Position numbers and translations under genes: made by a program
Part shown: positions 26,062-50,325 of the stretch, one piece after another
Layout: each line of letters starts with the position of its first letter
How positions within the stretch are numbered: the first letter of the stretch is position 1
Assembly (NCBI GenBank): GCA_963702845.1
Contig: OY969763.1
Coordinates: forward strand, 4,992,001-5,056,000
Direction: 5' to 3'
Length of the DNA stretch: 64,000 nt
From: an uncultured Verrucomicrobiae bacterium
Lineage (GTDB): Bacteria > Verrucomicrobiota > Verrucomicrobiia > Limisphaerales > Palsa-1400
The notes under the pieces: model-generated
Told to the model about the DNA's origin: nothing
The model's database searches: none
Seen by the model: the letters and a program-made list of their open reading frames with translations, nothing else

Positions 26062-26188
26062 CACTAGCGCGATTCGACGACTCTTGAAATGACAACCAAG
26101 CGCGGGCCGCGCTAAATTTTCGTCGTGAACTGATTACTGCTCACCGGTTACTGCTTACTTCCTTTTTCCCCATTTCCTCGTATCTTCT

Positions 26189-28980: not shown

Positions 28981-29066
28981 GAACCGCGTAGCGGTTCTTG
29001 AAGGTAGCCGTGGGTTTTAACCACGAATGAGACGTCAAAAGAGGGTTGTGTCGCGTAGCGACACAT
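28981..29066. repeat. REP/REPIN-like palindromic cluster (CGCGTAGCG cores)
   Basis: gaaccgCGTAgcggttc, gaaggtagccgtgggttttaaccacg, tgtgtcgCGTAgcgacaca. Confidence 0.65.
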
Positions 29067-29159
29067 GAACCCGAAAAAACCGAAACATACCCACTGCATG
29101 TGGCTAACCGGGGCTGGCTTCAATGGCTATCCCCTATCATGTGGTGCGCGCAAAAAAAC

Positions 29160-29558
29160 GATTTTGGAAGGGCTGTAAGCCGAATTTTGTCTGAACTCTT
29201 GCGAGTCGAGAGAATCATTTGTCTCAGCAGCCGATACCCGGGACCTGTCCCGCTTTCGCGGAACTCAGAGCGGGCCGCTCCAGGGTCCCCTATTTGGCCT
29301 TGCACCCGATGGGGTTTTCCGTGCCACTGCCATTACTGGCAGCGCGGTGGGCTCTTACCCCACCTTTTCACCCTTACCGGCGCATTGCTGCACCGGCGGT
29401 TTATTTTCTGTGGCACTTTCCGTCAACGCAGCCTCACGACTGCATTGCCCGCGTGTATCCCGGAATCAAGTTCCAGGTTACGCGGCATCGCGCCCTCTAG
29501 TGTTCGGACTTTCCTCCCCGTCCTTGCGGACAGAGCGATCCTCCACCCTTCCAAAATC
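29160..29558 (-). ncRNA. rnpB: RNase P RNA (type A)
   Basis: Minus strand has GAGGAAAGTCC near the 5' end and ACAAAATTCGGCTTA near the 3' end; ends pair (gattttggaaggg/cccttccaaaatc). Confidence 0.96.
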
Positions 29559-29732
29559 ACGCACATCATACCGCGAATCCCCCTCTTTACAAGACGCCCT
29601 GCCGACCAGAAGCCAACATGCTCGAACACTCCCGCGTTTACTGTAAAACATTTTCATGCTTTCCCCGATAGGTCGTTTGCTTGTCTGTATTTAGTAAGTG
29701 AGGACAATGGGGTCGCGCCAACCATCCCAAAT

Positions 29733-31715
29733 ATGTTTAAGTGTCCCCCTGTCGCCCTTTTTATGCTGGCGATAGCGACATGTGTCACGTACGCGCAGCC
29801 CGCCAGTCCTTTTGATAGTTCGCCCCAAGCTTACAAATCGCTCAGTCTCGAAGACCTGATGAACCTGCCGGTCACATCAGTCTCCCGCCAACCCGAGCCC
29901 TACAGCGTCGCCCCCGCAGCCTTGCAAGTGGTAACGGGCGATGAAATTCGCCGTTACGGCGCCTCGAGTTTTCCGGAAGCCTTGCGCCTGGCCGACAATC
30001 TCGACGTCGCCCAAGTCAGTTCGTCCAGCTGGGCAATCAGCTCGCGCGGCTTCAATTCGTCGGTCGGAAACAAACTGCTCGTCCTGATGGACGGCCGCAC
30101 CATCTACACCCCGTTGCTCTCCGGCGTCATCTGGGCCAACCAGGACTACTTGCTTCAGGACATCGATCGTATCGAAGTTATCAGTGGTCCGGGTGGAACC
30201 CTTTGGGGCGCCAACGCGGTGAACGGCGTCATCAATATTGTCAGCAAAAACGCACGCGACACGCAGGGCTTCTATGGCGAAGTTGGCGGCGGTTCGTGGT
30301 TGCACGACTTTGTCGGACTGCGCTACGGCGGGACAATCACGACAAACGTCTTCTACCGCGCTTACGTGAAGTATTTCGAGCGCGGCCCATTGGAATACGC
30401 CGATGGCGCCAGCGCGCATGACCCTTGGAACCGCGGCCAGGGCGGCTTCCGCATCGACGACGAACGCTCCTCCGTCAGCAAGTTCACGCTACATGGCGAT
30501 TTCTACGCAGGTGACACCAGTATTGTTCCCGCCGGTCAAGGCACCCCGCAAGCGGTTGGCAACGCCAGCGGCGGCAATCTACTCGGGCGCTGGACGCGCA
30601 CGCTGGCCGAGGAATCGGACATGTCGCTGCAAACCTACTACGATCACACCCATCTCGGCGTGCCCTTCCCGGCTTCTGGCTCTGTGCCGTCGGGTATTTT
30701 TCGTGACGACCTCGACACTTTCGATATCGATTTCCAACACCGCATTCCCATCGGTGACCGTAATCGCGTCATCTGGGGTGCCGGTTATCGTTTCATAAAC
30801 GACAACTCCACTGAAGCGCCTTTGGTTGCCTTCTTTCCGGCCGTCTTCAATCAGAACATCTTCAGCTTTTTTGTGCAGGACGAAATCAAACTGCACGAAA
30901 ACTTGTTCTTTACTCTCGGCACAAAACTCGAGCACAACGACTACACCGGCTTCGAAGTCGAACCCAGCGGCCGCATCGAATGGCACGTCCATGAGAAGCA
31001 CATGATCTGGGGCGCCATCTCCCGCGCTGTGCGGACGCCTTCTCGTTTTGACCGCGACATCTTCGAACCAGCGCCCGAGTTCGGCAACGTGCTCGGAACC
31101 AGCAATTCCAACTTTCGTTCCGAATTTGTCCTCGTTTACGAACTCGGCTATCGCGCCGAACTCACCAAACGCGTCTCCGGTTCGCTCTCGCTTTTCTTCA
31201 ACAATTACGAAGACCTTCGCACCATCGGCACTACGAGCGGCGGTTTGCCTTTAGTTTTCCAAAACAATCTGCACGGCTATACCTACGGCCTCGAACTCAG
31301 CAGCGATTACCAGGTGCTCGACTGGTGGCGCTTGCACCTGGGCTACGATTTGCTTGAAGAACATTTGCGCGTCAAAAACGGCGAGTTCGATGTCAACAAC
31401 GGTCTCAACGAAACAGCCGATCCGAAAAATCAACTCTTTCTGCGCTCCTCCATGGATTTGCCGTACAACATCGAATTCAACACGGCCCTGCGCCTGATTG
31501 GCGCCGTCCACAACGACAGCGGTCCGACAGTCGGCACTGTCCCCAGCTACGTCGAACTCGACGCCCGCATCGCCTGGCACGCCACCAAACACCTTGAACT
31601 TTCCATCGTCGGCGAAAACCTCCTGCACCAACGCCACCCCGAAGCCGGTTTCCCTGGCCCCGCGCAAGAATGGGCCATCCGCAGCGCCTACGGCAAACTC
31701 GCCTACCAATTTTAG
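29733..31715 (+). CDS. TonB-dependent receptor
   Basis: Start taken at ATG 29733; plug motifs SLEDLMNLPVTSVSR, NKLLVLMDGR, IDRIEVISGPGGTLWGANAVNGVINI; terminal YQF. Confidence 0.93.
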   Translation: MFKCPPVALFMLAIATCVTYAQPASPFDSSPQAYKSLSLEDLMNLPVTSVSRQPEPYSVAPAALQVVTGDEIRRYGASSFPEALRLADNLDVAQVSSSSWAISSRGFNSSVGNKLLVLMDGRTIYTPLLSGVIWANQDYLLQDIDRIEVISGPGGTLWGANAVNGVINIVSKNARDTQGFYGEVGGGSWLHDFVGLRYGGTITTNVFYRAYVKYFERGPLEYADGASAHDPWNRGQGGFRIDDERSSVSKFTLHGDFYAGDTSIVPAGQGTPQAVGNASGGNLLGRWTRTLAEESDMSLQTYYDHTHLGVPFPASGSVPSGIFRDDLDTFDIDFQHRIPIGDRNRVIWGAGYRFINDNSTEAPLVAFFPAVFNQNIFSFFVQDEIKLHENLFFTLGTKLEHNDYTGFEVEPSGRIEWHVHEKHMIWGAISRAVRTPSRFDRDIFEPAPEFGNVLGTSNSNFRSEFVLVYELGYRAELTKRVSGSLSLFFNNYEDLRTIGTTSGGLPLVFQNNLHGYTYGLELSSDYQVLDWWRLHLGYDLLEEHLRVKNGEFDVNNGLNETADPKNQLFLRSSMDLPYNIEFNTALRLIGAVHNDSGPTVGTVPSYVELDARIAWHATKHLELSIVGENLLHQRHPEAGFPGPAQEWAIRSAYGKLAYQF

Positions 31716-31780: not shown

Positions 31781-32345
31781 AAAAAACCATGCCAACCCCG
31801 CTCGTTCGACAAATTTAGTCATAAAAAACTGCCATTTCTTTCCCTGATTTCCCTCCTTTCCCTACATTTTTTGACGAGTAGCTCCTTCCTGCCATAATCC
31901 CACCCGCACGCACGCACAAGCGTGCCCGCCGGGCAATCACACCCGTTGGCCCGTCCTCCATAGCTTCACGCGAAGGAGGAAACATGGAAAGGTTCGTTAT
32001 GTGGAAATGCTCGAAGATACCGAAGGTTTTGCAGCGCGTGTGCCCGAAGCAGACGCTGAGCTCCCCCGCCGCTTTGGAATTGTGCGCGTGGACCTGCAAC
32101 TCGACGCATCCTTTCCAGCCCTCAACCCTCAACTCTCAACCATCGAAAATTGCACCTGCTGCCACCTTCTGTCACCTACTGCCGGCCATTGCCACCGGAA
32201 AAATCTTTTATACAAAGGGTCTAAATCTCAAAAATATCCACGCCCGCTTGCGTTTCGTGCGATTTCACATGCTGTTTTAACCCCCCATTTTCGCACGTTT
32301 TTCACGCAATCCGACTCACCGGCCCACCGACTTACCGACTCACAA
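31781..32345 (+). repeat. Modular intergenic element, copy A (conserved head + 7/10/8-bp periodic body)
   Basis: 31813-31875 matches the reverse complement of 45696-45758 at 58/63 nt (hand alignment); same downstream module order. Confidence 0.85.
31871..31898 (+). promoter_or_regulatory. Sigma70-like promoter inside element A
   Basis: TTGACG-16 nt-CATAAT with TG upstream of the -10; -35, TG and AxAAT are kept in copy B while the spacer diverges. Confidence 0.6.
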
Positions 32346-32427
32346 CCCGTATGTGCCCACCACCCTGTTGTCTTGCCTTGCGAGCCCATTCCGAGTATTG
32401 ATTTTACTGCCCAAGCGACACCTCTTT

Positions 32428-35400
32428 ATGAATCGGTTTCGAACCTTCCTGCTCATCCTGTCTCTGGTTCTGGCCATCGGCTCGCCGCGCGCTAAGGCTG
32501 CGACGCTCAACGTCCCACCACGCGCCACCAATGCCCTTGCCGGCCAGCAATTCGTCAACGTCATCACCTCAATGGCCGCGCCGCCGGACACGCAGCGCGA
32601 GAATTGGATTTTCGCCCAGATCGCCAGCGGCAACGTCCCCAATTTCATGCACACGTTGGTCCCTATCACGACGAACCTGACCATCAGCGGCGTGCCGCAC
32701 ACCGTAACTTACTACGTCACGCCCGACTACATGGCCATTGGTTCCGATTCCGATTATTTCCTCGAACCCATGACCCCGCTGCTCGCCCAACGTGTCGACA
32801 CACTCCTCGGCACCATTCGCCCCACGCGAAAAATGGTCAACGACATCGCCAACAAAGCCGTCGTCCATCTTCAGCCGAACCCGATTCCGCCGGACCCGAA
32901 CATGATTACCGTGCCGTATTTCAATCAGCACAATACGATGGTCTGGACCCAACGCGTCGTCACGCTGGCCGCGCACCCGCTCGGCTCACTCGTCGACGGC
33001 GACAAAAAAGACGTCATCGTTTCCACACTCATTTACAACAATCTGCATTCCGGCGTGCCGAAACCCGTCGTCATCTACGGCTGGCACTATCCCGACGGTA
33101 CATTCATCCAACCCGCATACAACGGCCATGAAGAAACCTACGCCGATTACAGTCACGGCATCCGCATGGTCCAAAACGCCATCATCCTCGACGGCACCAA
33201 CACAACCATCACCGCTGTCCTCACAAATCCAGCAGTCGCCGCCATCCTGAGCGATGAAACCACGTTCACCGGCAACACCATTCCGCAGCCGTACTACACT
33301 GTCGCCGCCGTCGCGCCGACGATCATCACCCATCCATTCAGCCGCGCGGTCGGTCCCGGCACCAATGTTCAATTCTCCGTGCTCTCCGTCGGCGACCCGC
33401 CGCTCACCTACACCTGGAAGCAAAACGGCTCAGCCATATCCGGTGCGACCAATTCCGTCCTCACCATCAACAACGCGCAGTCAGGCAACGTCGGCACTTA
33501 CAGCGTCGTCGTCGGCAACGCCAGTGGCACAGCTACAAGTTGGAACGCGACACTGACGGTTAACGCGCAGACGCATCCGATTTTGTTCTCTGACGATTTC
33601 GACAACAACAACTCCGCCAACTGGAATGTGTTCTGGGGCGCGGACAACAGCGTGCCCGATTACACGGTCACGTGGGCTTACGACTACGGCGCGACTCCTT
33701 ATTTATACAGCGGCCTCAGTCACTTGATCCCGCCTTCACCGCATTCTACCGGGTCAACTAAAGGCGTGAAGTTCACCGTCAACACCACCAACGGCGCGAA
33801 CGTCGGCGTAAACATTTATCCAAAAAACAAAACCTTCAGCGGCAACTTCGCCGTGAAATTCGACATGTGGATCAATTACCCCGGCACCGCGAATGGCAGC
33901 GGCGCGAGCGGCAGCACGCAATTTGGAATTTTCGGCATCGACCACACCGGCACCCGCGCAAACTGGGGCGCAGCCAGCGCGACCGCCACCGATGGGCTCT
34001 GGTTTGGTTCTGACGGCGATGGCGGCACCACCCGCGATTACCGCGCTTATCTCGGCAATGTGTCCGGCACACAAACCGAACTCATCGGCGCGACCAGCGG
34101 CCTGACCGCCTCGAACCACGCCGCTGCCATTTATCAAACGCTCTTCCCCGCTCCGCCAAACGAATCCGCCGGTGCCCCCGGCAAAACCTGGGTCTCAGTT
34201 GAAGTCGATCAAACGAACAATAACCTCACCGTGTTGATGAACGGCACAGTCATCGCGCAGCGCACCAACACATCCGTTTTCATTAACGGCACAATCATGC
34301 TGGGGTTAATGGACGTCTTCCCATCGCTCGCCAGTCCCGTCGCCGAGTCCTACGTCATATTCGACAATGTCACCGTCGAAGACCTCAGCTCCAGCGGAGT
34401 TGCTCCCAACATCAATTCTCAACCACAAAACCAAAGCGTCCCACTCGCCACGCCCGCGACTTTCACCGTCAGTGCCACCGGTTCGTCGCTCAGCTATCAA
34501 TGGCTCTTCGAGGGCAACAACATCGCCGGTGCCAATGGCTCGTCGTACACCATCGCCAGCGCTCAAAACACAAATATCGGTTACTACAGCGTCATCGTGA
34601 GCAACGCGCTCGGGACCGCCACTAGTTCGAGCGCCAACCTGACCATCAGCGGGTATTATCTCGATACGCTCGACGCCAACAGCTCAGCGAATTGGGTCAC
34701 GAACACATCGTCTGCGGACAACCGCATCACGTGGAATTTCGATTACTCAACTGTCGGAATCCCACTGCTCAGCGGAGCGAGCAGCACGCGCGCGTTAAAG
34801 ATGGAAGCGAACCTTTCTTTGGCTGCCGTCGCCGCGATCAATCTATCGCCAAAAAACCAAAGTTTCACAGGCGATTACCAATTGCGCTTCAATGTCTGGT
34901 TGAACTTCGTGGGCCCCGCGCCCGGCGGCGGCACTGGTTCCACCGAAGCGTTCACCGCCGGCATCGGCACCACCGGCGATCGAGTCGAGTGGGCGCAAGC
35001 GGGCAACACAGCCAACGGTGTTTGGGTTGCAGGCAATGGTGATGGTGGATCGAGTCCCGTCACACCGACCTATCCCGACTACGCGATCTACACCAACGCA
35101 ACCATTGGTGCCGCGTCGACGCTCGTTCGCACCAACTCCGGACTCTACGCCGCACCCAACAACGCCAACCCGAGCACTTATCACGGCAACACCTATTACA
35201 CCGCCGCGTTCCCCGGCAAAACCATCCCGGCCGCTCAAACCGCGCTTGCGCCTTCGACCCAAACCGGCACTGCTAGTACTGGTTCGCTCGGTTTCAGTTG
35301 GCACGAAGTCATCCTGAAAAAAGTCAGCAACGTGGTAACGTGGTCGATCGATGGCGTGCGGATCGCTTCGGTGACGAATGGCGTCATCGCGGGCAACAAT

Positions 35401-36960
35401 GTCTCCATCGGTTACATGGACCCGTTCCCGAGCGTCGCACAGACGAATTTTGAATTTGGTCTCTTTGCCAATTTCCGCGTCGAACCAACCGGTGCAGAAA
35501 CCGGAACTGCCCCAACCATCACCGCACAACCGCAAAGCACCAGCGTGAGCCCCGGCGCAACCGCGACGTTCAGCGTGACCGCGAGAAGCTCCAGCCCGTT
35601 GCGTTATCAATGGCAAAAGAACGGCATCACTATTTCCGGCGCGACCGCATCGGCGTTCACGATCGTCAACGCGCAACAATCCGACGCGGGCACGTACCAT
35701 GTTTTGGTGATGAACGATTTCAATTTCGTCACGAGCAGCGATGCAACACTTACGGTCTTGAGCGGACCGACACGCTTGCAAGGCATGGCGCTCAACCCCG
35801 ATAATTCCGTCACCACCACCTGGACAACCGACGCTTCGAGCACCTACACGCTCCAATACAAATCAAACCTGACCGACGCCGTCTGGACGCCTCTCGCCAG
35901 CTATATCGCCTCCGGCCCGACGCTCACCATTCCTGACGGACCGATCACCGATTCGCAACGCTTTTACCAACTCTCATCTGACCAACACCTCAGCGACATC
36001 GCCGGTGTGATGAATTTCACTTTACTGGGAAACTCCGACAATTTCGTTTCTCTACCGCTGGTGCGCGGCCCTTCGTCGGTCGCCGATATTTTATCCGCAT
36101 CAGGAAACGTCATTACGACCATTGATTCACCGTGGACCAACGGCCAGTTCGTTTACCCAGCTAACGTGCAGTCGAATACTTATTACGCGCGTTTCATCTC
36201 CGGCGCCCTCGCCGGCCGCATCTACACCGTCACCGACAACACCGCGAACACAGTGACAATTAACCTCGGCTCCGATTCCGTCGCCGCAGTCGCGCAATAC
36301 GACCAAATCTCGATTGAACCCTATTGGACCCTCGCCACCGCGTTCCCGAACGGCGCGGGCGTGAACGTTTCGCCCACCCAGGGCAATCGCAACACCGAAA
36401 TTCTTTTGCCCGATCAATCCAGCCCCGGCGTGAATCTTAGTTCAGCGCGCGTTTACTTTTTCAACGCGGGCATTTGGAAACAAGTCGGCCAGGGCGGCGC
36501 CAATCACAACGACGATGTGCTCGCGCCCAACATTCACTTCATCATTCGCCACAACGTCGCCACCAACACAACCCTCTCGATCACCGGCCTCGTCGTCTCA
36601 AGCGCATTGTCCATCCCGTTGCAAACATCCAGCACCACCGCGCAAGACAACTACATCGGCCTCGCTCGCCCCGTTACGATGACGTTGAACACCTCCGGTC
36701 TCATCAGCAGCGGAGCGTTTAGCACAAGCCCGCTCCCCGGCACGCGCACCGACGAACTGCTCACTTTCGATAACGGCGTCGCGCAGAAAAATAAATCTTC
36801 CTCGGCAGTGTATTATTACTGGAGCAATGCGTGGCGTCGGGTCGGTTCCGGAAGTCAGGACGTCGGAGACACGCAAGTATTCGCACCCGGCACCGGCGTC
36901 ATCATCCGCAAAGCCACCAACAGCCCTGCCTCGGTTTGGGTTACCTTACCGACCTGGTGA
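32428..36960 (+). CDS. Large exported multidomain protein: uncharacterised N-terminal enzyme-like domain, 3 Ig domains, 2 related beta-sandwich domains, FYxL domain, C-terminal TIGR02597-like domain
   Basis: Start taken at ATG 32428 with signal peptide; Ig repeats 'P.I..QP.......G..ATF.V.A.....L.YQW'; C-terminal 'PYWTLATAFP...DNYIGLARP...GVIIRK' recalled as TIGR02597-like. Confidence 0.85.
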   Translation: MNRFRTFLLILSLVLAIGSPRAKAATLNVPPRATNALAGQQFVNVITSMAAPPDTQRENWIFAQIASGNVPNFMHTLVPITTNLTISGVPHTVTYYVTPDYMAIGSDSDYFLEPMTPLLAQRVDTLLGTIRPTRKMVNDIANKAVVHLQPNPIPPDPNMITVPYFNQHNTMVWTQRVVTLAAHPLGSLVDGDKKDVIVSTLIYNNLHSGVPKPVVIYGWHYPDGTFIQPAYNGHEETYADYSHGIRMVQNAIILDGTNTTITAVLTNPAVAAILSDETTFTGNTIPQPYYTVAAVAPTIITHPFSRAVGPGTNVQFSVLSVGDPPLTYTWKQNGSAISGATNSVLTINNAQSGNVGTYSVVVGNASGTATSWNATLTVNAQTHPILFSDDFDNNNSANWNVFWGADNSVPDYTVTWAYDYGATPYLYSGLSHLIPPSPHSTGSTKGVKFTVNTTNGANVGVNIYPKNKTFSGNFAVKFDMWINYPGTANGSGASGSTQFGIFGIDHTGTRANWGAASATATDGLWFGSDGDGGTTRDYRAYLGNVSGTQTELIGATSGLTASNHAAAIYQTLFPAPPNESAGAPGKTWVSVEVDQTNNNLTVLMNGTVIAQRTNTSVFINGTIMLGLMDVFPSLASPVAESYVIFDNVTVEDLSSSGVAPNINSQPQNQSVPLATPATFTVSATGSSLSYQWLFEGNNIAGANGSSYTIASAQNTNIGYYSVIVSNALGTATSSSANLTISGYYLDTLDANSSANWVTNTSSADNRITWNFDYSTVGIPLLSGASSTRALKMEANLSLAAVAAINLSPKNQSFTGDYQLRFNVWLNFVGPAPGGGTGSTEAFTAGIGTTGDRVEWAQAGNTANGVWVAGNGDGGSSPVTPTYPDYAIYTNATIGAASTLVRTNSGLYAAPNNANPSTYHGNTYYTAAFPGKTIPAAQTALAPSTQTGTASTGSLGFSWHEVILKKVSNVVTWSIDGVRIASVTNGVIAGNNVSIGYMDPFPSVAQTNFEFGLFANFRVEPTGAETGTAPTITAQPQSTSVSPGATATFSVTARSSSPLRYQWQKNGITISGATASAFTIVNAQQSDAGTYHVLVMNDFNFVTSSDATLTVLSGPTRLQGMALNPDNSVTTTWTTDASSTYTLQYKSNLTDAVWTPLASYIASGPTLTIPDGPITDSQRFYQLSSDQHLSDIAGVMNFTLLGNSDNFVSLPLVRGPSSVADILSASGNVITTIDSPWTNGQFVYPANVQSNTYYARFISGALAGRIYTVTDNTANTVTINLGSDSVAAVAQYDQISIEPYWTLATAFPNGAGVNVSPTQGNRNTEILLPDQSSPGVNLSSARVYFFNAGIWKQVGQGGANHNDDVLAPNIHFIIRHNVATNTTLSITGLVVSSALSIPLQTSSTTAQDNYIGLARPVTMTLNTSGLISSGAFSTSPLPGTRTDELLTFDNGVAQKNKSSSAVYYYWSNAWRRVGSGSQDVGDTQVFAPGTGVIIRKATNSPASVWVTLPTW

Positions 36961-38160
36961 AAGCGTGTTGAGCAGAGCGGCCAATCGCCTCGTCTGGTCC
37001 CGACGCGAATAGTGTTCAACCGCTTGCTCGTTGCGCGTCAGCTTGATGTCGCCGGTTTGTTTCCACTCGGCGTACCACTTTGTGAGAACGCCCGCGATTT
37101 CCTGCGGTGTGCTGGTGATCTCGCCGGCCCTTGTCCGGCGGACGATGTCGCACGCATCACCGCCGTCGTCAGGTGCGAGCAAGATGGGACGTTTCGCGCC
37201 AAGATAGTCAAAAATTTTCGCCGGCAAAACACCGGGATGATCGGTGCAAGTCAACAAGAGCAACGCCGCGCTCTTCTGTTGAATTTCAATGACTTGTTTG
37301 TGTGGAACCTTGGGATGGGCTTTGACCGGCAACGTCTCCAACGCGCCGGGACAGGTCTCATTGATCTGTTCGACCGATGGTCCGTAAAAGTTGACCTGGA
37401 TTTTGTCGCGAGGAATCGAGCCGCTGTTTAACGCAAGCCGAAGCCCTTGCATGAACAGGTCAGGATGCTCAAGCCGAACGATTGAGCCGGTGTAAGAAAT
37501 TGTGAAAACCGATTTGTCCGGTTGCACGCCTGTCGGAAACAGCGCCGGGTCATAACCGTTTTCAATGACCTGCACTTGTTTGCCGATCCTGGGCGAAAGC
37601 TCTTTGGCCCAGCTCGGCGAGACAATCGCGACCGCGTTGGCATCGCGGCAGAGTCGTCGCTCGTGATAAGCCCAAATGGGCCGCTTGTACCATGAACCAA
37701 ACGGAACAAGACTGTAGCTGTCGCGCAAATCGGCAATCCACGGCTTGTTGATTCGCTTGGCCGTTTGACTCGCTAAACCCATCGTGACAATTGGATCGCT
37801 CGTCGCCCACACGGCATCAAACTGAGTTTCGCGACAAAGTTCGGTGATGGCTTCAGTCGCCTTGCGCGACCACAGGTGTGGCGCGAGGTGCGGGCTCGCG
37901 TAGGGCAATAATTTTCGAACCACCATGCGTTCGTAAAACGTGCGATACGGCGGCTGGGGAACGCGCACGATTTTGACGTCGTCCGGTATTTTGCCGACGA
38001 AGTTCGGATCTGAATCACGACCCTCGGCCGGCCAGTCCTGGCAGACGACGGTAGGCAGCCATCCGTTTTCGGGCAGATACTTTGCGAAGCAACCGGTGCG
38101 ATAACTGGCCACGTGATTGCGCGGAGGAAAGTAAAATGCGATCAAGAGGACTCGTTTCAA
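36946..38160 (-). CDS. Glycosyltransferase, GT4-like
   Basis: Start taken at TTG 38160 (KRVLLIAFYFPP); PWIADLRD, IENGYD, PAKIFDYLGAKRPIL. Confidence 0.88.
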   Translation of the reverse strand: MKRVLLIAFYFPPRNHVASYRTGCFAKYLPENGWLPTVVCQDWPAEGRDSDPNFVGKIPDDVKIVRVPQPPYRTFYERMVVRKLLPYASPHLAPHLWSRKATEAITELCRETQFDAVWATSDPIVTMGLASQTAKRINKPWIADLRDSYSLVPFGSWYKRPIWAYHERRLCRDANAVAIVSPSWAKELSPRIGKQVQVIENGYDPALFPTGVQPDKSVFTISYTGSIVRLEHPDLFMQGLRLALNSGSIPRDKIQVNFYGPSVEQINETCPGALETLPVKAHPKVPHKQVIEIQQKSAALLLLTCTDHPGVLPAKIFDYLGAKRPILLAPDDGGDACDIVRRTRAGEITSTPQEIAGVLTKWYAEWKQTGDIKLTRNEQAVEHYSRRDQTRRLAALLNTLSPGR

Positions 38161-38235
38161 CGCGGCGCGAAGGTAGTTCGCAGAGGAAATGCTTTTCAAG
38201 CATAAAGAAAGCCATGAGAATGCGCGCCGTCGCGC

Positions 38236-39327
38236 ATGAACGCCGTTATCCCGCACAAATCCAAACCTGCCGTGCGGCATTTGCACGTTCTGCAGAACTC
38301 TTTCTTTGTCACGCCGTTCCTGGATTTTTTGAAAAAGCACTTTCCGGAAGAGTTTGCCGGTTCGACGTTTTACGCGATGGGTTACAGGGACCGCATCCAA
38401 ACCGACGTTCCAGTGACGGTCGTGAAATCGTTTGGCGACTTTATCAAGCTCTACCTAAAAATGCGACGCTACGACCGCATTTTCTTCCATTCATTTCCAG
38501 CAGCACACAAGCGGCTGATGTTGATGGCGCTGTCGCCTTCGTTGCTGAAGCGCATGACATGGATTATCTGGGGCGCGGACCTCTACAACGAATACGAATA
38601 CTTGAGCACCAGCCCGAAGGGTTCTCACCGTTCGCGCTTGCGATTATTGCGGTTTGTCACGTCGCGGTTTGGCGCGGTCGCAACGCTTTTGCCAAGCGAC
38701 TTTGAATATGCAAAGAGCATCTTTGGTTTGCGCGGCCAGCATAAGCCGGTGAGTTACATTCCGGTTTCGGATTTGCCGCACGTCGCGGAGAGAACGCGCC
38801 AACCCGGCGAACCATTGCGCATTCTCATCGGCAACTCGTCCACGCGCACCAGCCGATTCGAAGACGCGTTTGAAAAGTTGAAAGTTTATCGCGACGAGAA
38901 CATTGAAATTTTCGTTCCGCTCTCTTACGGCGATAAGGAATACGCGCGTGAAATCGCCAGGCTCGGCGCGGATATTTTCGGCAACAAGTTCAAGCCGCTC
39001 CTCGAGTGGATGGCACCCGCTGATTACGGCGCTTTGCTCAACAGCATCGACATCGGCGTGTTCAACCACAAGCGACAGCAGGCGTTGGGCAACATCTATC
39101 ACATGTTCGCCGCCGGTAAAAAAGTTTATGTCCGGAGCGACGGCGCGATGTGGTCGTTCTTCAACTCTGATTTGAAGACAGAAATCGGAGACGCCTGCGA
39201 TTTGGGAAAGATTTCGTTCGACGAATTAGCCAAACCGGTAGACGGACGCGCTAACCACGAGAAGATCGGCGGGCACATCGGTCTGCCGAACTTGATCAAA
39301 ATGTGGAACGGGATCTTGCGCGAGTAG
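38236..39327 (+). CDS. WecF-like (GT56) 4-alpha-L-fucosyltransferase family protein
   Basis: WIIWGADLY, ILIGNS, IFVPLSYG..EY, FNHKRQQALGNI, GKKVYV. Confidence 0.8.
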   Translation: MNAVIPHKSKPAVRHLHVLQNSFFVTPFLDFLKKHFPEEFAGSTFYAMGYRDRIQTDVPVTVVKSFGDFIKLYLKMRRYDRIFFHSFPAAHKRLMLMALSPSLLKRMTWIIWGADLYNEYEYLSTSPKGSHRSRLRLLRFVTSRFGAVATLLPSDFEYAKSIFGLRGQHKPVSYIPVSDLPHVAERTRQPGEPLRILIGNSSTRTSRFEDAFEKLKVYRDENIEIFVPLSYGDKEYAREIARLGADIFGNKFKPLLEWMAPADYGALLNSIDIGVFNHKRQQALGNIYHMFAAGKKVYVRSDGAMWSFFNSDLKTEIGDACDLGKISFDELAKPVDGRANHEKIGGHIGLPNLIKMWNGILRE

Positions 39328-39329
39328 CC

Positions 39330-40046
39330 TCACGCGATGGGCTTGATGGCCGTTCCGTTCAGCCCGATTGGCATTAGCTGGTCGGTGTAAGCGTCCGGTG
39401 GGTCATCAATTCTCTCAAGCCAGAGCACGACAGGGATGGCCATGCGGGCAAGAAGCGATTTTAAAGACCGACGCCATCCCCGCGCTGACCGGCGTCGAAT
39501 CCACAGACTTAACATTTGTGCCATACTGGCGTCCCATCCTCCGGACGCTCGAATCATGATTGATGAAAAGCCGCTATTGGTCAGGTGACGTTTCAGCGAA
39601 AACGGCGTGTAACGATATTCATCGTAAGGTGAGCAATGAAGCGGCCACAAAAACGGCACGGTGAAATACATGAACCCGCCGGGCTTCAACACCCGCAATA
39701 TTTCCTTCATCACAACTTCCGGTTCTGGACAATGCTCGAAAACTTCAGTCGCCATCACGCAGTCCACGCTCGCATTCTCCATCGGGATTACTTTTCCGTC
39801 CCATTCCAGGTCAGGTTTGCCATACTCGTTATTCGGTAGATCAAGGCCAATGTAACGCGTCACCCGGCTGCCGGGTTGAACAAATAACGATTTGTAAGGC
39901 ATGCGTCCGCATCCAACGTCCAGCACCGTGCCGTGAAAATTCGGCAATTCGCGTGTGAGGGCCTTGAGCACGGCACGACGCGGTATGTAAATGTCGATCC
40001 TTCTGGCGGTGCACTTGGGATTGAGGAAATCATGTTGGTCGGCCAT
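39330..40046 (-). CDS. Class I SAM-dependent methyltransferase
   Basis: VLDVGCGRMPY, TEVFEHCPEP, RVLKPGG, TVPFLWPLH; start taken at ATG 40046. Confidence 0.9.
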   Translation of the reverse strand: MADQHDFLNPKCTARRIDIYIPRRAVLKALTRELPNFHGTVLDVGCGRMPYKSLFVQPGSRVTRYIGLDLPNNEYGKPDLEWDGKVIPMENASVDCVMATEVFEHCPEPEVVMKEILRVLKPGGFMYFTVPFLWPLHCSPYDEYRYTPFSLKRHLTNSGFSSIMIRASGGWDASMAQMLSLWIRRRSARGWRRSLKSLLARMAIPVVLWLERIDDPPDAYTDQLMPIGLNGTAIKPIA

Positions 40047-40157
40047 ACAAACAATTTTGAATTGTTGCGCAGTTTGCCGATATGAACAAACGGCGTCCAG
40101 ATAAACCAATTCTTCTCGCCTGCTTTTGTTCGACACGGCAGAATAGTCGCGCTCCTT

Positions 40158-43100
40158 ATGAAACAACTTTTGCTGCTTGCTGTTTGCGCCTCAACAGCTG
40201 CGTATGCCTCCACTGCTCAATTCAAATTCGCCCACCAAACACTTACTGTGCCTGATGGGTTCACCGTCGAACAGGTTACCGCGACCGATCTGCTCCCAAG
40301 ACCGATCGAAGCCGACTTTGACGAACAGGGCCGCCTTTACGTTACTGACTCGTCTGGCTCGAATGAAAAGCCGCCGGTGCAACTGGAGCAAAAGGCACAC
40401 CGGGTGTTGCGCCTTGAAGATACGAAAGGGAACGGTCATTTCGATAAAACCACGGTGTTTGCGGACAAGCTGACGTTTCCGGAAGGGTGTTTGTGGTATA
40501 ACGGATCGCTGTATGTCAGCGGTGTGCCGAGCATCTGGAAACTCACTGATACGAACGGTGATGGCGTAGCGGATTTGCGCGAAGAATGGCATCTGGGCAA
40601 GACGATGACTGGTTGCGCTAATGACCTTCACGGGCCATACCTCGGATTGGATGGTTGGATTTATTGGTGCAAGGGCGCCTTCGCGGAACAGACTTACGAC
40701 GATCCCGGCCACAAGCCGATCAGCAGTCGTGCCTCACACATTTTTCGGAAGCGACCGAAAGGCGGGATTGTGGAATCGGTCCTGACCGGCGGAATGGATA
40801 ATCCCGTTGGTCTGACTTTTACACCGGAAGGCGAACGCATCCTGAGCGGTACATTCTTTGTTCATCCCGAAGCGGGCGATCGCGATGGACTCATTCACGC
40901 GATTTACGGTGGTGTTTATGGCAAGCCGCATCCTGATGTGCTCGATGGCCACAAAAAAACCGGCGAACTCATGCCACTGATGACTCATCTTGGGCCAGCG
41001 GCGGCGTGTGGGTTGACGCGCTATCAATCGACGCAATTCGGCAATGATTTTCAAAATAACCTGTTCGTTTGCTGCTTCAATTTGCGGAAGGTCGTGCGTG
41101 TCGTTCAGGAACCCGACGGCGCGACCTACAAGACGAAGGAACAGGACTTCGTCGTCTCGGACAGCACGGATTTTCATCCCACGGATGTTCTCGAAGATGC
41201 CGACGGCAGCTTGCTCGTCGTCGACACCGGTGGTTGGTATAAGATTTGTTGCCCGACCTCACAGCTTTGGAAACCGGATTCGCTTGGCGCAATTTACCGC
41301 ATTCGTAAAAGTGGCGCACATAAGGTCGAAGACCCGCGCGGGTTGAAACTCGATTGGAGCAACACCGAAGCTGAGCAGTTGACGAAGCTTCTCGACGACA
41401 AACGTCCGGTGGTGGTTGAGCGCGCTATCCAACAACTCGGCAAAATTGGACATCCAGCGGTTCAGCCGTTGTCGAACGTGCTAACGAAATCGCCATCGGT
41501 TGAAGCACGGCGCAATGCTGTTTGGGCTTTGACACGTATCAATGACAAGACTGCCCGCGATGCGGCGCGTTACGCGTTGATGGATGCAAATGAATCAGTG
41601 CGGCACGCCGCCATTCATTCGGTGAGCGTGTGGCGTGATGCCGATGCGCAATTTCCGTTGCATCCGCTCATGCGCACGGGCAGCGCACAAATCCGGCGCG
41701 CCGCCGCTGAAACGCTCGGTCGTTTGCAGAGCAAAGCCGCGATTAGTGCTTTGTTCGATGGCGCGCCGACCAAACATGATCGCGTGCTCGAACATTCCAT
41801 CACTTACGCGCTCATCGATATTGATGACCCTGCGGCGACAGTCATTGGTCTAACGAACACGAACGTGTTTGCGCAACGTTGCGCTTACATCGCGCTCGAT
41901 CAGATGGACAATGGCGGGTTGAAGCCGGAACAGGTTTCACCGTTGCTCTTGTCTTCCGACACGAATCTGAAAGAAACCGGCGCGTGGCTCGTGTCGCATC
42001 ATCCGGAATGGGGCGAAGCGCTTGCGGGGTTGCTCCGTGACGCGTTGAACAAGGCGTCGACGCCTGAGCAACAGGACGCGTTGGAAAAGCAACTCGCTCA
42101 ACTCGCATCGAATGCGAAAGTTCAGGAATTGTTGGCCGAGAGCGTCACTGCAGAATCGAAACCGGCGCAACTCATCGCCGTTCGTGCGATGACACAAGCG
42201 CATCTTCGCGCGGCGCCCATCGCCTGGGGCACGGCTTTGAGCAAAGCGCTTGCCGGGTCTAATGCGACGCTCGTCCGTGAAGCTGTCAGCACGGCGCGTT
42301 ATGTCACATTCGAAGAACGCCCACCCGGATTGAGTGATGCGCTGGTTCGAGTTGCTAACAACAGTGCATTGCCGGACGAAGAACGTCTCAATGCTCTCGC
42401 TGCCGCACGGAGTCAGATCAAGCTCGATCCTGAACTGTTCGAGTTTGTGCGGGCACAACTCGATCCGAACAAACCAGTCGCGGCACGTGTGACGGCTGCA
42501 TCGGTTATCGAACGTGCCAAACTAACACCGGAACAACTGAAGGCACTGACCGAAAATGTTAAAGCAGTCGGCCCGATGGAGTTAACCCATCTGCTCGCGG
42601 CTTATGGCCATGCATCAGAGGAAGCCCTGGGCATGTCCATCGTGGAAGCGCTCAAGGAATCGAAAGCCCGCTCGACGCTTCGCGCCGATGCGGTGAAGCC
42701 TCAGTTCGCGAAATTTCCCGCGCCAGTTCAGCAGAAGCTTGATGAGTTCCTGAAATCGCTCAACGTCGATTCCGCCAAACAACAGGCGCATATCGATGAT
42801 CTGCTATCGCAAATCAAGGGCGGCAACATCTATCGCGGTCAGGCCGTCTTCAATGGCGCGAAAGCCGCGTGTTCCACTTGCCACTCGATTGGTTACGGCG
42901 GAGGCCATGTTGGACCGGACCTGACGCGCGTCGGCCAGATCCGCACCGAGCGCGATATTCTCGAAGCAATTGTTTATCCGAGCTCGAGTTTCGTCCGCAG
43001 CTTTGAACCGTTTATTGTCACCACTAAAGATGGCGAAGACTACAGCGGCGTGATCAAGAAAGACGCGCCCGACGAAGTCATTCTCGCAACCGGCCCGCAA

Positions 43101-43250
43101 TCCGAGCAACGCATCCAGCGCTCGAACATCGCCGACATGCGCATGGGCTCAGTCTCGATCATGCCGCAAGGCCTCGACGAACAACTGAGCAAACAGGAAC
43201 TGGCTGACCTGGTCGTGTTCCTCAAGTCGTCCGTCGGCGGCACTCACTAG
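40158..43250 (+). CDS. PVC-type heme-binding CxxCH protein (beta-propeller dehydrogenase-like + HEAT repeats + cytochrome c)
   Basis: Signal peptide; VPDGFTVEQV, DTNGDGVAD, FHPTDVLEDADGSLLVVDTGGW; HEAT repeats; CSTCH, VGPDLT, SIMPQGL. Confidence 0.92.
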   Translation: MKQLLLLAVCASTAAYASTAQFKFAHQTLTVPDGFTVEQVTATDLLPRPIEADFDEQGRLYVTDSSGSNEKPPVQLEQKAHRVLRLEDTKGNGHFDKTTVFADKLTFPEGCLWYNGSLYVSGVPSIWKLTDTNGDGVADLREEWHLGKTMTGCANDLHGPYLGLDGWIYWCKGAFAEQTYDDPGHKPISSRASHIFRKRPKGGIVESVLTGGMDNPVGLTFTPEGERILSGTFFVHPEAGDRDGLIHAIYGGVYGKPHPDVLDGHKKTGELMPLMTHLGPAAACGLTRYQSTQFGNDFQNNLFVCCFNLRKVVRVVQEPDGATYKTKEQDFVVSDSTDFHPTDVLEDADGSLLVVDTGGWYKICCPTSQLWKPDSLGAIYRIRKSGAHKVEDPRGLKLDWSNTEAEQLTKLLDDKRPVVVERAIQQLGKIGHPAVQPLSNVLTKSPSVEARRNAVWALTRINDKTARDAARYALMDANESVRHAAIHSVSVWRDADAQFPLHPLMRTGSAQIRRAAAETLGRLQSKAAISALFDGAPTKHDRVLEHSITYALIDIDDPAATVIGLTNTNVFAQRCAYIALDQMDNGGLKPEQVSPLLLSSDTNLKETGAWLVSHHPEWGEALAGLLRDALNKASTPEQQDALEKQLAQLASNAKVQELLAESVTAESKPAQLIAVRAMTQAHLRAAPIAWGTALSKALAGSNATLVREAVSTARYVTFEERPPGLSDALVRVANNSALPDEERLNALAAARSQIKLDPELFEFVRAQLDPNKPVAARVTAASVIERAKLTPEQLKALTENVKAVGPMELTHLLAAYGHASEEALGMSIVEALKESKARSTLRADAVKPQFAKFPAPVQQKLDEFLKSLNVDSAKQQAHIDDLLSQIKGGNIYRGQAVFNGAKAACSTCHSIGYGGGHVGPDLTRVGQIRTERDILEAIVYPSSSFVRSFEPFIVTTKDGEDYSGVIKKDAPDEVILATGPQSEQRIQRSNIADMRMGSVSIMPQGLDEQLSKQELADLVVFLKSSVGGTH

Positions 43251-45269
43251 TTATTCGTCGCTGCTCGCCAGTTTTGCCAACACGCTGAAATCTTCGAGTG
43301 TCGTGGTGTCGCCTTTGATTTCGACGCCGGTGGCGATTTGTTTCAGTAAACGGCGCATGATTTTACCGGAGCGGGTCTTGGGCAATGTTTCGGCAAAACG
43401 GATGTCGTCCGGCTTCGCCACGGGGCCGATTTCTTTGGCGACGTGAGCGCGCAACTCTTCACGAATAGCAGGACTGGCTTTGATGCCGGTTTTTAAAGTG
43501 ACGAATGCGACTAAGGCCTGGCCTTTTAAATCGTCGGGACGGCCGACGACGGCGGCTTCGGCAACTTTTTGGTTGCTGACCAATGCGCTTTCAACTTCGG
43601 CAGTGCCGATGCGGTGGCCGGCGACGTTCAGGACGTCGTCGATGCGGCCGACGATCCAGAAGTAACCGTCTTTGTCCTGACGGCATCCGTCACCAGTAAA
43701 ATAGCTGCCTTTGACTTCGCTCCAGTACGTTTCGACGAAACGTTTTGGGTCGCCCCAGATGCCGCGGAGCATGCTCGGCCATGGTTTGCGGACGACGAGT
43801 TTGCCGCCGGAATTTTTCGGGACGGGGTTGCCTTCATTATCCACGACTTCGGGCAGGATGCCGAAGAAAGGGAGCGTGGCGGTGCCGGGCTTGGTCGGGG
43901 TCGCACCGGGAAGCGGGCTAATCATGATGCCGCCGGTTTCAGTTTGCCACCAGGTATCGACAATCGGGCAACGTTTACCGCCGATGACTTCGTGATACCA
44001 CATCCACGCTTCCGGATTGATCGGTTCGCCAACCGTGCCGAGCACGCGCAGGGAACTGAGATCGTGTTTCTTCGGCCATTGGGTGCCCCACTTCATGAAG
44101 GCGCGAATGGCGGTCGGCGCGGTGTAGAGAATGGTGATGCCGTATTTGGCGATGATACGCCAGAAACGGTCGGACTCGGGCCAGTTGGGCGCGCCTTCAT
44201 ACATGAAGCTAGTTGCGCCGTTGGCGAGCGGGCCGTAAACGACGTAGCTGTGGCCGGTTACCCAACCGATATCGGCCGTGCACCAATAGACATCTTCATC
44301 GCGCAGATCGAAAACGTATTTGGTGCTGAGTTTCGCGCCGAGCAAATAACCGGCGGTGGTGTGCAGGATGCCTTTGGGTTTGCCGGTCGAACCGCTGGTG
44401 TAAAGAATGAAGAGCGGGGCTTCGCTGTCCATTTTTTCGGCGGGACAGTTGGCGTCAACGTATTCGAGTTCGCGATGCCACCAGACGTCGCGGCCTTCCT
44501 GGATGTGGATTTCGTTGTTGGCGCGGCGCAGGACGACGACTTTTTCGATCGTTTTGGCGAGTTGGTTGCCTTCGGCATCTTTGATGTCGAGTGCGTCGTC
44601 GACGTTTTTCTTGAGCGGGACGACTGCACCACGACGATAACCGCCATCACAGGTGATGACGAGTTTCGCCTGGCAATCCTGAATACGGTCCGCAACGGAT
44701 TGGGCACTGAAACCGCCGAAGACGACGGAATGCACCGCGCCGATGCGGGTGCAGGCGAGCATGGCGATGGCGGCTTCGGGGACCATCGGCAGATATATAA
44801 TGATTCGGTCGCCTTTTTTGATGCCGTTGCGTTTGAGAACGTTTGCGAAGAGGCAGACTTCGTGATGGAGTTGCTTGTAGGTTAGCGTGCGTTCTTCCCC
44901 GACTTTGCCGGGTGATGCTGGTTCGCCTTCCCAAATGAGCGCGGCCTTGTTGGCGGTGGCGGTGCCGAGATGTTGGTCGAGGCAGTTGTAGCTGACGTTG
45001 GTTTTGCCGCCTATGAACCATTTGGCGTAGGGCAGTTTCCATTGCAGGACTTTGCCGAAAGGCTTGAACCAGACGAGTTCCTGCTTGGCGGTGCGGCCCC
45101 AGAATTTTTCGGGCTGCTTGATGGATTCGTTGTAGAGCTTCTTATATTCGGCCATCGATTTGATGTGGGCCTTGCTCGAGAATTCTTTCTTGGGTGGAAA
45201 AACGCGGGTTTCCTGAAGCATGGAGGTGATGTTGGCTCCGGGTGCGTTGCTGGATTTAATTTTGTCCAT
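43251..45269 (-). CDS. acs: Acetyl-CoA synthetase (acetate-CoA ligase)
   Basis: [52 protein letters not shown]; start taken at ATG 45269. Confidence 0.97.
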
Positions 45270-45289
45270 AAAAGCTGAAAATTTTGGCG

Positions 45290-45319
45290 ATTTTATCGGG
45301 GCGCGGTGAGGGGCGTCAA
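45290..45319 (-). promoter_or_regulatory. Putative sigma70 promoter of acs
   Basis: TTGACG-18 nt-TAAAAT, ending 20 nt before the acs ATG. Confidence 0.55.
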
Positions 45320-45354
45320 TCGCCGAAGTGAGAGTGGTACCACAGCGATCCCAG

Positions 45355-45790
45355 GGTAAGTCGGTAAGTTGGTGAGTTGGTACGAAAGTGGGTGGAAATG
45401 CGGTGGCGCGAGGAAAAGTTTTTTTGGGCGTTAATGGGTAGAATCGGACGGAAGCGGTCATTATTGGATGAAAGTGGACGTTAATGGGCACCCTCCTTTG
45501 GGTTAATTGGGCACTAATGGGCAGGAAAGTTTCAAGTAAAGATGGGCACAGGTCGACAGAGTTGGACGATCGGCGATCGGCGATAGCAATGGCCATTGGT
45601 TTCATAACTGACCTTTCAAATTTTCCGCAGAGCGCCAGTGCTCAGCGGGCATGGGTTATCCGTGCGGGGAGAATTGTTGCAGGAAGTCACGGCCTGTCAA
45701 AAAATGTAGGGAAAGGAGGGAAGCCAGGGAAAGAAACGGCACTTTTTTGTGACTAAATCTATCAACTGAACTGGTTGGCATGGTTTTTGA
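45355..45790 (-). repeat. Modular intergenic element, copy B (inverted relative to copy A)
   Basis: Shares AAAAACCATGCCAA, triple (T/C)TTCCCT, TTTTTTGAC, CCCGCACG, GAAAGGT..GTTATG and CC(G/A)ACT(T/C)A octamers with copy A. Confidence 0.85.
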
Positions 45791-50129: not shown

Positions 50130-50325
50130 GCAAAATCCGAAATCCGAAATTCGAAACAAATTCCAAATTCGACTGAGAGGCAACAGCGGCAGAGGGGCCG
50201 AACGTCGGCGTCGCATTCCGCAGTCCAAGACGCTTCGCGAGGATTTGACGCGGGTACCATGTTATAAGCTCTGCGGCTTTTTCAAGACCTGAGGAAGTTA
50301 GAGACTCGTTACCTCGTCTCCTACA
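50130..50325. repeat. Cluster of short REP-like repeats between convergent thrH and gpsA
   Basis: aaatccg aaatccg aaattcg heptamers; gcggcagag...cgcagtccaagacgcttcgcg; gagactcgttacctcgtctcctac. Confidence 0.55.

Follow-up and report, generated by a model that had tools for sequence, protein, structure and literature searches.

The stretch of DNA analysed (the window, 64,000 nt) corresponds to positions 4,992,001-5,056,000 of the single 6.03 Mb contig of the source genome (G000), from an uncultured member of the Verrucomicrobiae, and carries two inverted copies of a repeated promoter-like module, designated copy A (+ strand) and copy B (- strand). Homologs with a named source point to the Limisphaerales (Verrucomicrobiota). 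Each copy contains a 63-nt core with three 9-bp boxes, at 31813-31875 (+) in copy A, where it consists of an A-tract, the boxes, a T-tract and a -35 box, and at 45696-45758 (-) in copy B. An earlier, sequence-only reading of the window had described this core as identical at 58 of its 63 positions, and had placed ATG codons at 31999 and 45605; both observations were confirmed. The boxes of copy A are located at 31839-31845, 31848-31854 and 31857-31863 (+), and Tandem Repeats Finder placed the 9-bp repeats at 31839-31869 in copy A and at 45708-45733 in copy B. A left module lies outside the core (45775-45788, -, in copy B), which in copy A (31781-31795, +) is an A-run with CCATGCCAA and represents one of two left-module types in the family. 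By consensus match both copies score as sigma-70-like promoters (10/12 matches, a 16-nt spacer and a TG before the -10 box), the predicted elements being TTGACG and an extended -10 CATAAT in copy A (31871-31898, +) and TTGACA and an extended -10 AACAAT in copy B (45673-45700, -).

The promoter is followed by a leader and ATG (31899-32001, +, in copy A; 45603-45672, -, in copy B) and then by a 7-mer run, which is a generic intergenic repeat in copy A (32119-32141, +) and was detected with Tandem Repeats Finder in copy B (45567-45584, -). The copy A leader also precedes a small-terminase gene (terS) at genome position 4,752,870, matching 4,752,753-4,753,022 with 75.5% identity over 274 nt (BLAST). 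Further downstream both copies carry a 10-bp-phased array with an A/T tract; in copy A (32151-32210, +; 10-mers at 32153-32183 by Tandem Repeats Finder) this is a candidate site for wrapping by a small terminase, comparable to a pac site, and in copy B (45410-45525, -) it is of the type found before a second terS gene at 1,810,752. Copy A thus combines the leader of the 4,752,870 gene with a different array type, and copy B combines a leader of the same group with an array of the 1,810,752 type. The copy B array falls under the thresholds of Tandem Repeats Finder and of our array scan, and is backed by BLAST matches to the same stretch of eight other copies (seven gene-less copies of the 1,810,752 subfamily and one at 3,863,5xx). 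A conserved block after the copy A array (32199-32348, +), common to at least five other loci, ends in 8-mers at 32311-32343, and an 8-mer run is present in copy B at 45355-45382 (-, Tandem Repeats Finder). The repeat runs reported earlier were recovered by this program, with 9-, 7- and 8-mers in both copies and 10-mers in copy A. The accompanying statement that the sequences are unalignable after the ATG holds for copy A against copy B but fails against other family copies, copy A being 88% identical over 578 nt to a twin at 5,602,9xx (BLAST).

Both copies precede co-oriented host genes. Downstream of copy A lies a gene for a large Ig-domain protein (32428-36960, +), the ortholog of which in G002 is also preceded by a copy (G001 and G002 are congeners, representing sister species; G003 and G012 are further relatives). 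Downstream of copy B lies the acetyl-CoA synthetase gene acs (43251-45269, -), a site that is likewise occupied in G002; acs has a predicted promoter of its own (45290-45319, -), which is present in relatives without the element. The copy B ATG (45605) opens a stop-free frame of 112 codons running into acs (45605-45269, -), an unrelated G002 copy at the acs site also runs in frame into acs, and several other copies run in frame into host genes.

A profile search of G000 returned 33 copies of the module with E <1e-20 and one weak match, while the core pattern read backwards gave 0 matches. The module is therefore not the two-copy element initially described, and the earlier suggestion of a dispersed family is correct. 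The same anatomy was observed in all 33 copies: each has an A-tract, 9-bp boxes numbering two to four and a T-tract, and the offset of the -35 box is constant. Of the 33 copies, 25 keep a -10 box, scored as A at position 2, T at position 6 and at least 4/6 positions matching, compared to 1.8 expected from shuffles. The earlier proposal that promoter and upstream boxes are kept by selection is supported. The next gene was co-oriented for 31 of the 33 copies and, where non-phage copies are considered, for 23 of 25 compared to a background of 56% (P = 1e-4), while no replichore or replication-strand bias was observed among the 33. At least 22 further promoters in the genome share the -35 box, spacer and -10 box and have no 9-bp boxes (0 in the reversed genome at that score); many of these box-less relatives are followed by a hairpin, then a boxA-like word and then 10-mer arrays. 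An origin of the module from an rRNA promoter was rejected, as the 16S leader has no core and a boxA-like word was found in just 1 of 50 boxed copies, and coding on the reverse strand was rejected, as frames are not conserved between box types. Within the G000 boxes (window 31848-31860), nine nucleotides also match the 16S rRNA 3' tail and correspond to a Shine-Dalgarno sequence on the other strand; this is probably due to chance, as the match is missing from G001 boxes.

Eight of the 33 copies head phage-derived genes, in line with the earlier expectation that some copies carry a conserved gene, although the sequence-only reading had not recognised that the family serves phage-derived terminase and head genes. 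Four precede genes for Mu-gp27-like small terminases (PHROG 426, E 2e-8 to 2e-4; matches to Pfam PF11985 fall just below its cut-off), and in three of these four a large-terminase gene (terL) follows. The other four head blocks located at 5.227-5.251 Mb, which are split by host genes and lie in both orientations, and which comprise a DnaB/AAA_25 helicase, a protease with the capsid, a connector with portal and terL, and a set of small genes ending in a truncated terS; the first gene of the last block is labelled holin-like from its position and has no family match. In tailed relatives the head, connector and terminase genes lie in one operon, so it appears that one late operon was split and that each piece has a copy of the promoter. 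No integrase was found within about 80 kb of this head module, no match to a tape-measure protein was found in G000, and none was found there to the neck, tail or transposition proteins of three related full prophages, although PHROGs recognises few such tails. From its sequence the head gene set is apparently tail-less, and divergent tails could be missed.

The head module is under purifying selection: compared with G001 and G002 it gave dN/dS values of 0.08-0.25 (host genes 0.03-0.13) with similar dS. Capsid identity is 89-90% to both congeners and 75-77% to two other members of the family, and in a quick tree of 42 rows the five family capsids formed one clade apart from the viral ones; other capsids grouped by host family, likewise apart from the viral clade. 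For its one capsid G000 has 14 terS matches and terL at seven or eight loci, and terS-like (Mu-gp27-like) genes were detected in 29 of 31 family genomes, with up to 14 per genome. These genes are multi-copy in most family genomes, some forming tandem pairs and many having no terL nearby.

On this evidence we favour, with moderate confidence, the explanation that the 33-copy module is a shared, activator-controlled promoter of domesticated and apparently tail-less phage head and packaging genes, which has been spread and homogenised by recombination and not by a transposase, and of which the two window copies are gene-less members. From its position in five lineages, the core is most likely the regulon promoter of these tamed genes, and the window copies likely trace a virus-derived control and packaging system spreading in the chromosome of a soil-type bacterium.

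Relatives were compared for copies of the module and their boxes, those of the sister species being found by BLAST only, each with its own box type. G002 (67% complete) has at least 17 copies with a different box sequence, G001 has at least six with a third box sequence, and 15 of 27 matches in a metagenome scan were true copies, the other 12 being unrelated; 13 of these metagenome loci have G000-type boxes, one has the G002 type and one a fourth type. Where the loci were recovered in G001, G002 and the metagenome relatives, a core of the species' own type was found before helicase, connector, holin-like, protease or terS genes. Fifteen G002 copies have a mappable downstream gene and eight of these precede the same gene as a G000 copy, both window sites included; the upstream neighbour differs at five of these eight sites. 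For two of the promoters, those of the connector and holin-like genes, the best match of the leader is that of its ortholog (rank 1/49) while the boxes go with the species (ranks 38 and 36/49), box identity being 0.80 and 0.79 within species compared to 0.60 between orthologs. The exact core pattern was found in 0 of 40 relatives and a looser pattern in 1 of 30, and the core was not found outside the genus in the genomes searched. Phage and plasmid collections gave no match to the core, viral contigs gave no match for two box types, and no core was found beside 36 viral capsid or terS loci. In a metagenome relative (L194, L195) the helicase and connector blocks adjoin genes that in G000 are located in this window (about 52-53 kb and 60 kb), which points to rearrangement of the head module at or near these promoters.

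Arrays of ten or eleven bp before an A-tract number 89 genome-wide, with 12 located by a core (0.3 expected) and three by other terS genes, and in other family genomes arrays flank 11 of 23 terS-like genes while 0 of 23 lie inside genes. The 10-bp arrays belong with terminase genes across the family and are candidates for a pac-like role. The idea of a phased protein-binding platform was partly right. The 7- and 8-mer periodicity proved unspecific to the element, such runs occurring in other intergenic spots of the window as well: 7-mer triple runs of the copy A kind are generic (2 of 14 within 900 bp of a core), and triples of the 8-mer occur less often (3 of 4 lie close to a core). Further intergenic 7-, 8- and 11-mer runs, unlinked to the module, were observed at window positions 11046-11134, 23907-23939, 26129-26159 and 50133-50167.

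Twenty-five of the 33 copies are gene-less, both window copies included, and these keep the promoter, the leader and the 10-bp-phased array with its A/T tract, often together with the first terminase codons. Eight of them are truncated 5' ends of one terminase gene, their match to the terS locus at 1,810,752 extending from the boxes and breaking off 18-71 nt inside terS, and two more share arrays of the terS-terL junction (10 of 25 in all). It is conceivable, though we consider it unlikely, that the gene-less copies are working pac sites from which a head-only machine packages chosen chromosomal regions, the ragged terS ends being scars of cutting. The number of arrays and of terminase loci for a single capsid would suit such a machine, as would the eight stubs ending so close to the terS start, and the layout resembles the SPP1 pac region, which, in the part of the published account used here, extends over promoters and the terS start and contains bent DNA as well as direct repeats (PMC4737164). 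Deletions removing the helix-turn-helix (HTH) domain would, however, also end early in terS, the terS expansion is family-wide (29/31 genomes) while the capsid is not, the SF6 terminase domain showed little specificity for repeats in the same part of that account, and with no tail gene found in G000 delivery is left unexplained.

The ends of the copies bear on how the family spread. In all eight copies tested the longest match between termini was 3-7 nt, giving no terminal inverted repeat, and in eight copies the longest direct match between flanks was 3-4 nt, giving no target-site duplication; empty sites gave no clean insertion junction. Among neighbouring proteins (66 of 102 open reading frames were scanned, excluding phage genes, window genes scanned already, leader frames and some short or shadow frames), one of 66 was a transposase (Y1_Tnp), divergent and located outside the module. 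With no inverted ends, target duplications or cognate transposase, the module is not the end of an insertion sequence (IS), as the sequence-only reading had also supposed; its suggestion of a non-autonomous mobile cassette was partly right. That the module is a selfish repeat of the MITE or REPIN kind, non-autonomous and moved in trans by, for example, one of the genome's Y1/RAYT-type transposases, happening to contain a promoter and with phage genes having only captured copies, is quite unlikely in our estimation. It would account for the lineage-specific bursts of one subfamily per species, the many unshared sites and the hairpin-arm repeats flanking many copies, and Y1_Tnp has seven matches in the genome, of which one adjoins a copy that bears terS. 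The ragged ends without inverted repeats or duplications speak against it, as do 65 of 66 neighbouring proteins that are not transposases, a core that does not fold (z -0.7 and +0.4) and the same phage genes keeping copies in every species examined.

Recombination, as held in the favoured explanation, is suggested by near-identical leaders that often have unrelated left flanks, and vice versa, with left modules shuffled between copies, which is as expected from crossovers in the core. In G000 an extra cupin gene, compared with G002, lies between two direct copies (4,390,834 and 4,389,636) before rlmI. The gene-less copies might instead be the passive remains of many terS-terL cassette insertions from which the coding parts were deleted, unused and with promoters that match by common descent; the stubs of terS and terL starts, the decayed terS paralogs and the acs site being empty in three relatives (G001, G003 and G012) fit this account. 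We rate it as highly unlikely, given that the -10 box is kept across differing subfamilies, that downstream genes show an orientation bias, and that both window sites are occupied in G002 despite a dS of about 0.5-1 between the species. The first proposal, in which a dispersed family encodes regulated short RNAs or peptides and conserves its periodicity, is extremely improbable, even with an ATG and purine-rich lead-in after many leaders, several of which (that of copy B included) run into the downstream gene, and with box-less promoter relatives leading into boxA-like signals: an Rfam scan of the window found RNase P and one tRNA only, with no match above the gathering score for the element, folding of the leader does not exceed that of shuffles (z -1.4 and -1.5), the frames that follow the ATG vary from one subfamily to another and, with their lengths, even within a subfamily, and the arrays are helically periodic and travel with terminase genes.

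A candidate for the activator in the favoured explanation is encoded beside the head module at genome position 5,223,832. This Xis-like winged-helix protein is 58% identical in G002 (86% for its XRE neighbour), and its structural model (pLDDT 70) superposes on Xis, BldC and RdfS with TM scores by target of 0.60-0.84; a single-sequence fold (pLDDT 44) was unusable, and a PDB sequence search with the protein gave no match. BldC binds 9-bp direct repeats head to tail (PMC5859096, from the part of that paper relied on here), and the Xis-like protein is the best candidate reader of the 9-bp boxes. The XRE-type HTH protein beside the module was set aside as an unlikely box reader, as its helix region and the neighbouring palindrome are the same in G000 and G002. 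The divergent XRE/Xis-like gene pair (G000:C1:5,223,720-5,223,835 and L132:1391-1500) has a conserved palindrome between the -35 and -10 boxes, which resembles the conserved spacer word of the core promoter and may be a repressor operator.

Several points weigh against the favoured explanation. The roles of promoter, binding and particle are predicted from sequence alone, and, as the copies are kin, the promoter and orientation counts are not independent and overstate the independence of the evidence. Eight of the 33 copies head phage genes while most other terS genes use other promoters, and given the existence of box-less relatives the promoter part may predate its use by phage genes. Within the order the capsid clade is distributed patchily (28 of 351 genomes), one terS pair, which may not be orthologous, gave a dN/dS of 0.84, and the module's own terL (G000:C1:5,247,803-5,249,251) has an in-frame amber stop; no such stop is present in the other six G000 matches, the G001 copy is intact, and the interrupted gene may be a pseudogene or an assembly error. 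At six of the eight sites shared with G002 the leader does not track the ortholog, so for those six sites whole-copy replacement is as good an explanation as selection. A weak correlation between left and leader similarity persists (Mantel r 0.2), and one of the 11 arrays flanking terS-like genes is a 9-mer hairpin arm and not a 10-mer array. The fold matches of the Xis-like protein have E values of 0.2-0.5 (none <0.001), and its Pfam and PHROG matches are below cut-off.

In the mechanism that we propose, RNA polymerase would start from the -35/-10 pair, an Xis/BldC-like winged-helix protein would bind the 9-bp boxes head to tail, and a small terminase would wrap the 10-bp arrays as at a pac site. 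Spread would likely have occurred by duplication of terminase cassettes and by recombination among cores and flanking micro-repeats, as for PeSL cassettes (PMC2839356, in the portion of that report considered), and crossovers inside the promoter would swap left flanks, boxes and upstream cargo genes, so that each species would have boxes of its own. Activation of the phage-derived regulon would also turn on the window copies, which would read into acs and the Ig-domain gene as second promoters; they may serve as inducible second promoters, decoys or ectopic pac sites. A more far-reaching version, which we hold to be doubtful, is a genus-level head-only packaging machine with dozens of promoter and packaging-start cassettes, each read by a terS paralog, that would direct which regions are packaged and swap cargo, with a species-specific 9-bp code co-evolving with the Xis-like activator.

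The module was compared with known systems. Putative mobile promoters (PMPs; Nijveen, Matus-Garcia and van Passel 2012, PMC3575422), the origin and movement of which are stated there as unknown, similarly consist of near-identical promoter regions before unrelated genes that are neither a known RNA nor an IS; the window cores (92% over 63 nt, 58/63) exceed the PMP threshold (50 nt or more with an identity of 80% or higher, located upstream of non-paralogous genes), but are separated from the host start codons by about 430 and 550 nt, outside the range of -150 to -50. In contrast to PMPs, which mostly occur as pairs, there are 33 copies here, with phased arrays, species-wise box turnover and a source traceable to terminase and head operons. 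The comparisons that follow draw on part of each published account. PeSL cassettes of T4-type phages (Arbiol et al. 2010, PMC2839356) are also repeated, chimeric sigma-70-like promoter cassettes flanking swappable genes, and one cargo gene lies here between the direct copies at 4,390,834 and 4,389,636. The window copies share the strong sigma-70-like promoter in silico, while no adjacent terminator stem-loop was found at the head of either, and they differ in lying on a bacterial chromosome and in having the extra 9-bp boxes and 10-bp arrays.

Gene transfer agents (GTAs) such as RcGTA (Kogay et al., bioRxiv 10.1101/2022.06.10.494566) share phage-derived head and packaging genes at several loci and purifying selection. 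Vertical inheritance in a clade, as in GTAs, may apply here as well, capsids clustering by host family (quick tree) with dS like that of host genes, but with a patchy distribution in the order. The capsid, protease, portal, connector, TerS and TerL are caudoviricete-derived and endogenised over several loci as in a GTA; the differences are descent from a Mu-like lineage, a capsid with an HK97-type family match, the lack of any tail found, the large number of terminase paralogs, the spread of the promoter to 25 gene-less sites and the hypothetical nature of particles and transfer here. Phage-inducible chromosomal islands that form capsids (cf-PICIs; PMC10085698) have a similar tail-less complement (capsid, protease, portal, connector, TerS and TerL, with a helicase for replication and a pair of regulators), and head, connector and terminase genes without tail genes were found here too; the G000 set differs in having no integrase within about 80 kb and in forming blocks in both orientations among host genes in place of a contiguous 14-kb island. 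The SPP1/SF6 pac region (Greive et al., PMC4737164), the terminase of which selects bent DNA with little sequence specificity, has its promoter and terS start covered by direct repeats and by bendable, A/T-rich DNA, and repeats cover the same region here, whereas the 10-mers in G000 are helically phased, vary between paralogs and are also found without a gene at dozens of places in the chromosome. Winged-helix proteins of the BldC/Xis/RdfS type on direct repeats (PMC5859096) are comparable in that the repeats are 9 bp long and variable in number (two to four here) and that a protein of this fold is encoded beside the head module, the difference being that binding here is predicted only and the fold match is weak by E-value. 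The module is not a member of the IS/MITE, PeSL or cf-PICI classes; it works like a PMP and a PeSL cassette and serves a GTA-like gene set.

No paper on this element or system was found in the literature searched, which did not cover subscription journals and supplements. Among putative mobile promoters this family has a source that can be traced, namely the late operon of a tamed phage, and it shows box turnover at fixed loci. Its genes also form a candidate regulon for a Verrucomicrobiota system that is head-only and GTA-like. Direct tests are offered by the four natural box alleles, each with a candidate activator to match, and by dozens of predicted packaging-start sites, and if the arrays are pac sites packaging would be host-directed rather than random.

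A second promoter family of about 30 copies, with a 10-5-10 palindrome that is identical in G001 and G002, is found before other terS genes, HTH genes and array modules that lack a gene. Two more multi-copy HTH gene families (up to nine matches) lie behind this palindrome promoter (G000:C1:877,5xx, 2,816,5xx and 2,924,2xx), one of which may resemble small terminases. In the window, the RNase P RNA gene (29160-29554, -) sits within a long open reading frame (29046-31715) for a TonB-dependent receptor, which must therefore start later, near 29734, and in a metagenome relative (L185) a copy of the module lies just upstream of the RNase P gene.

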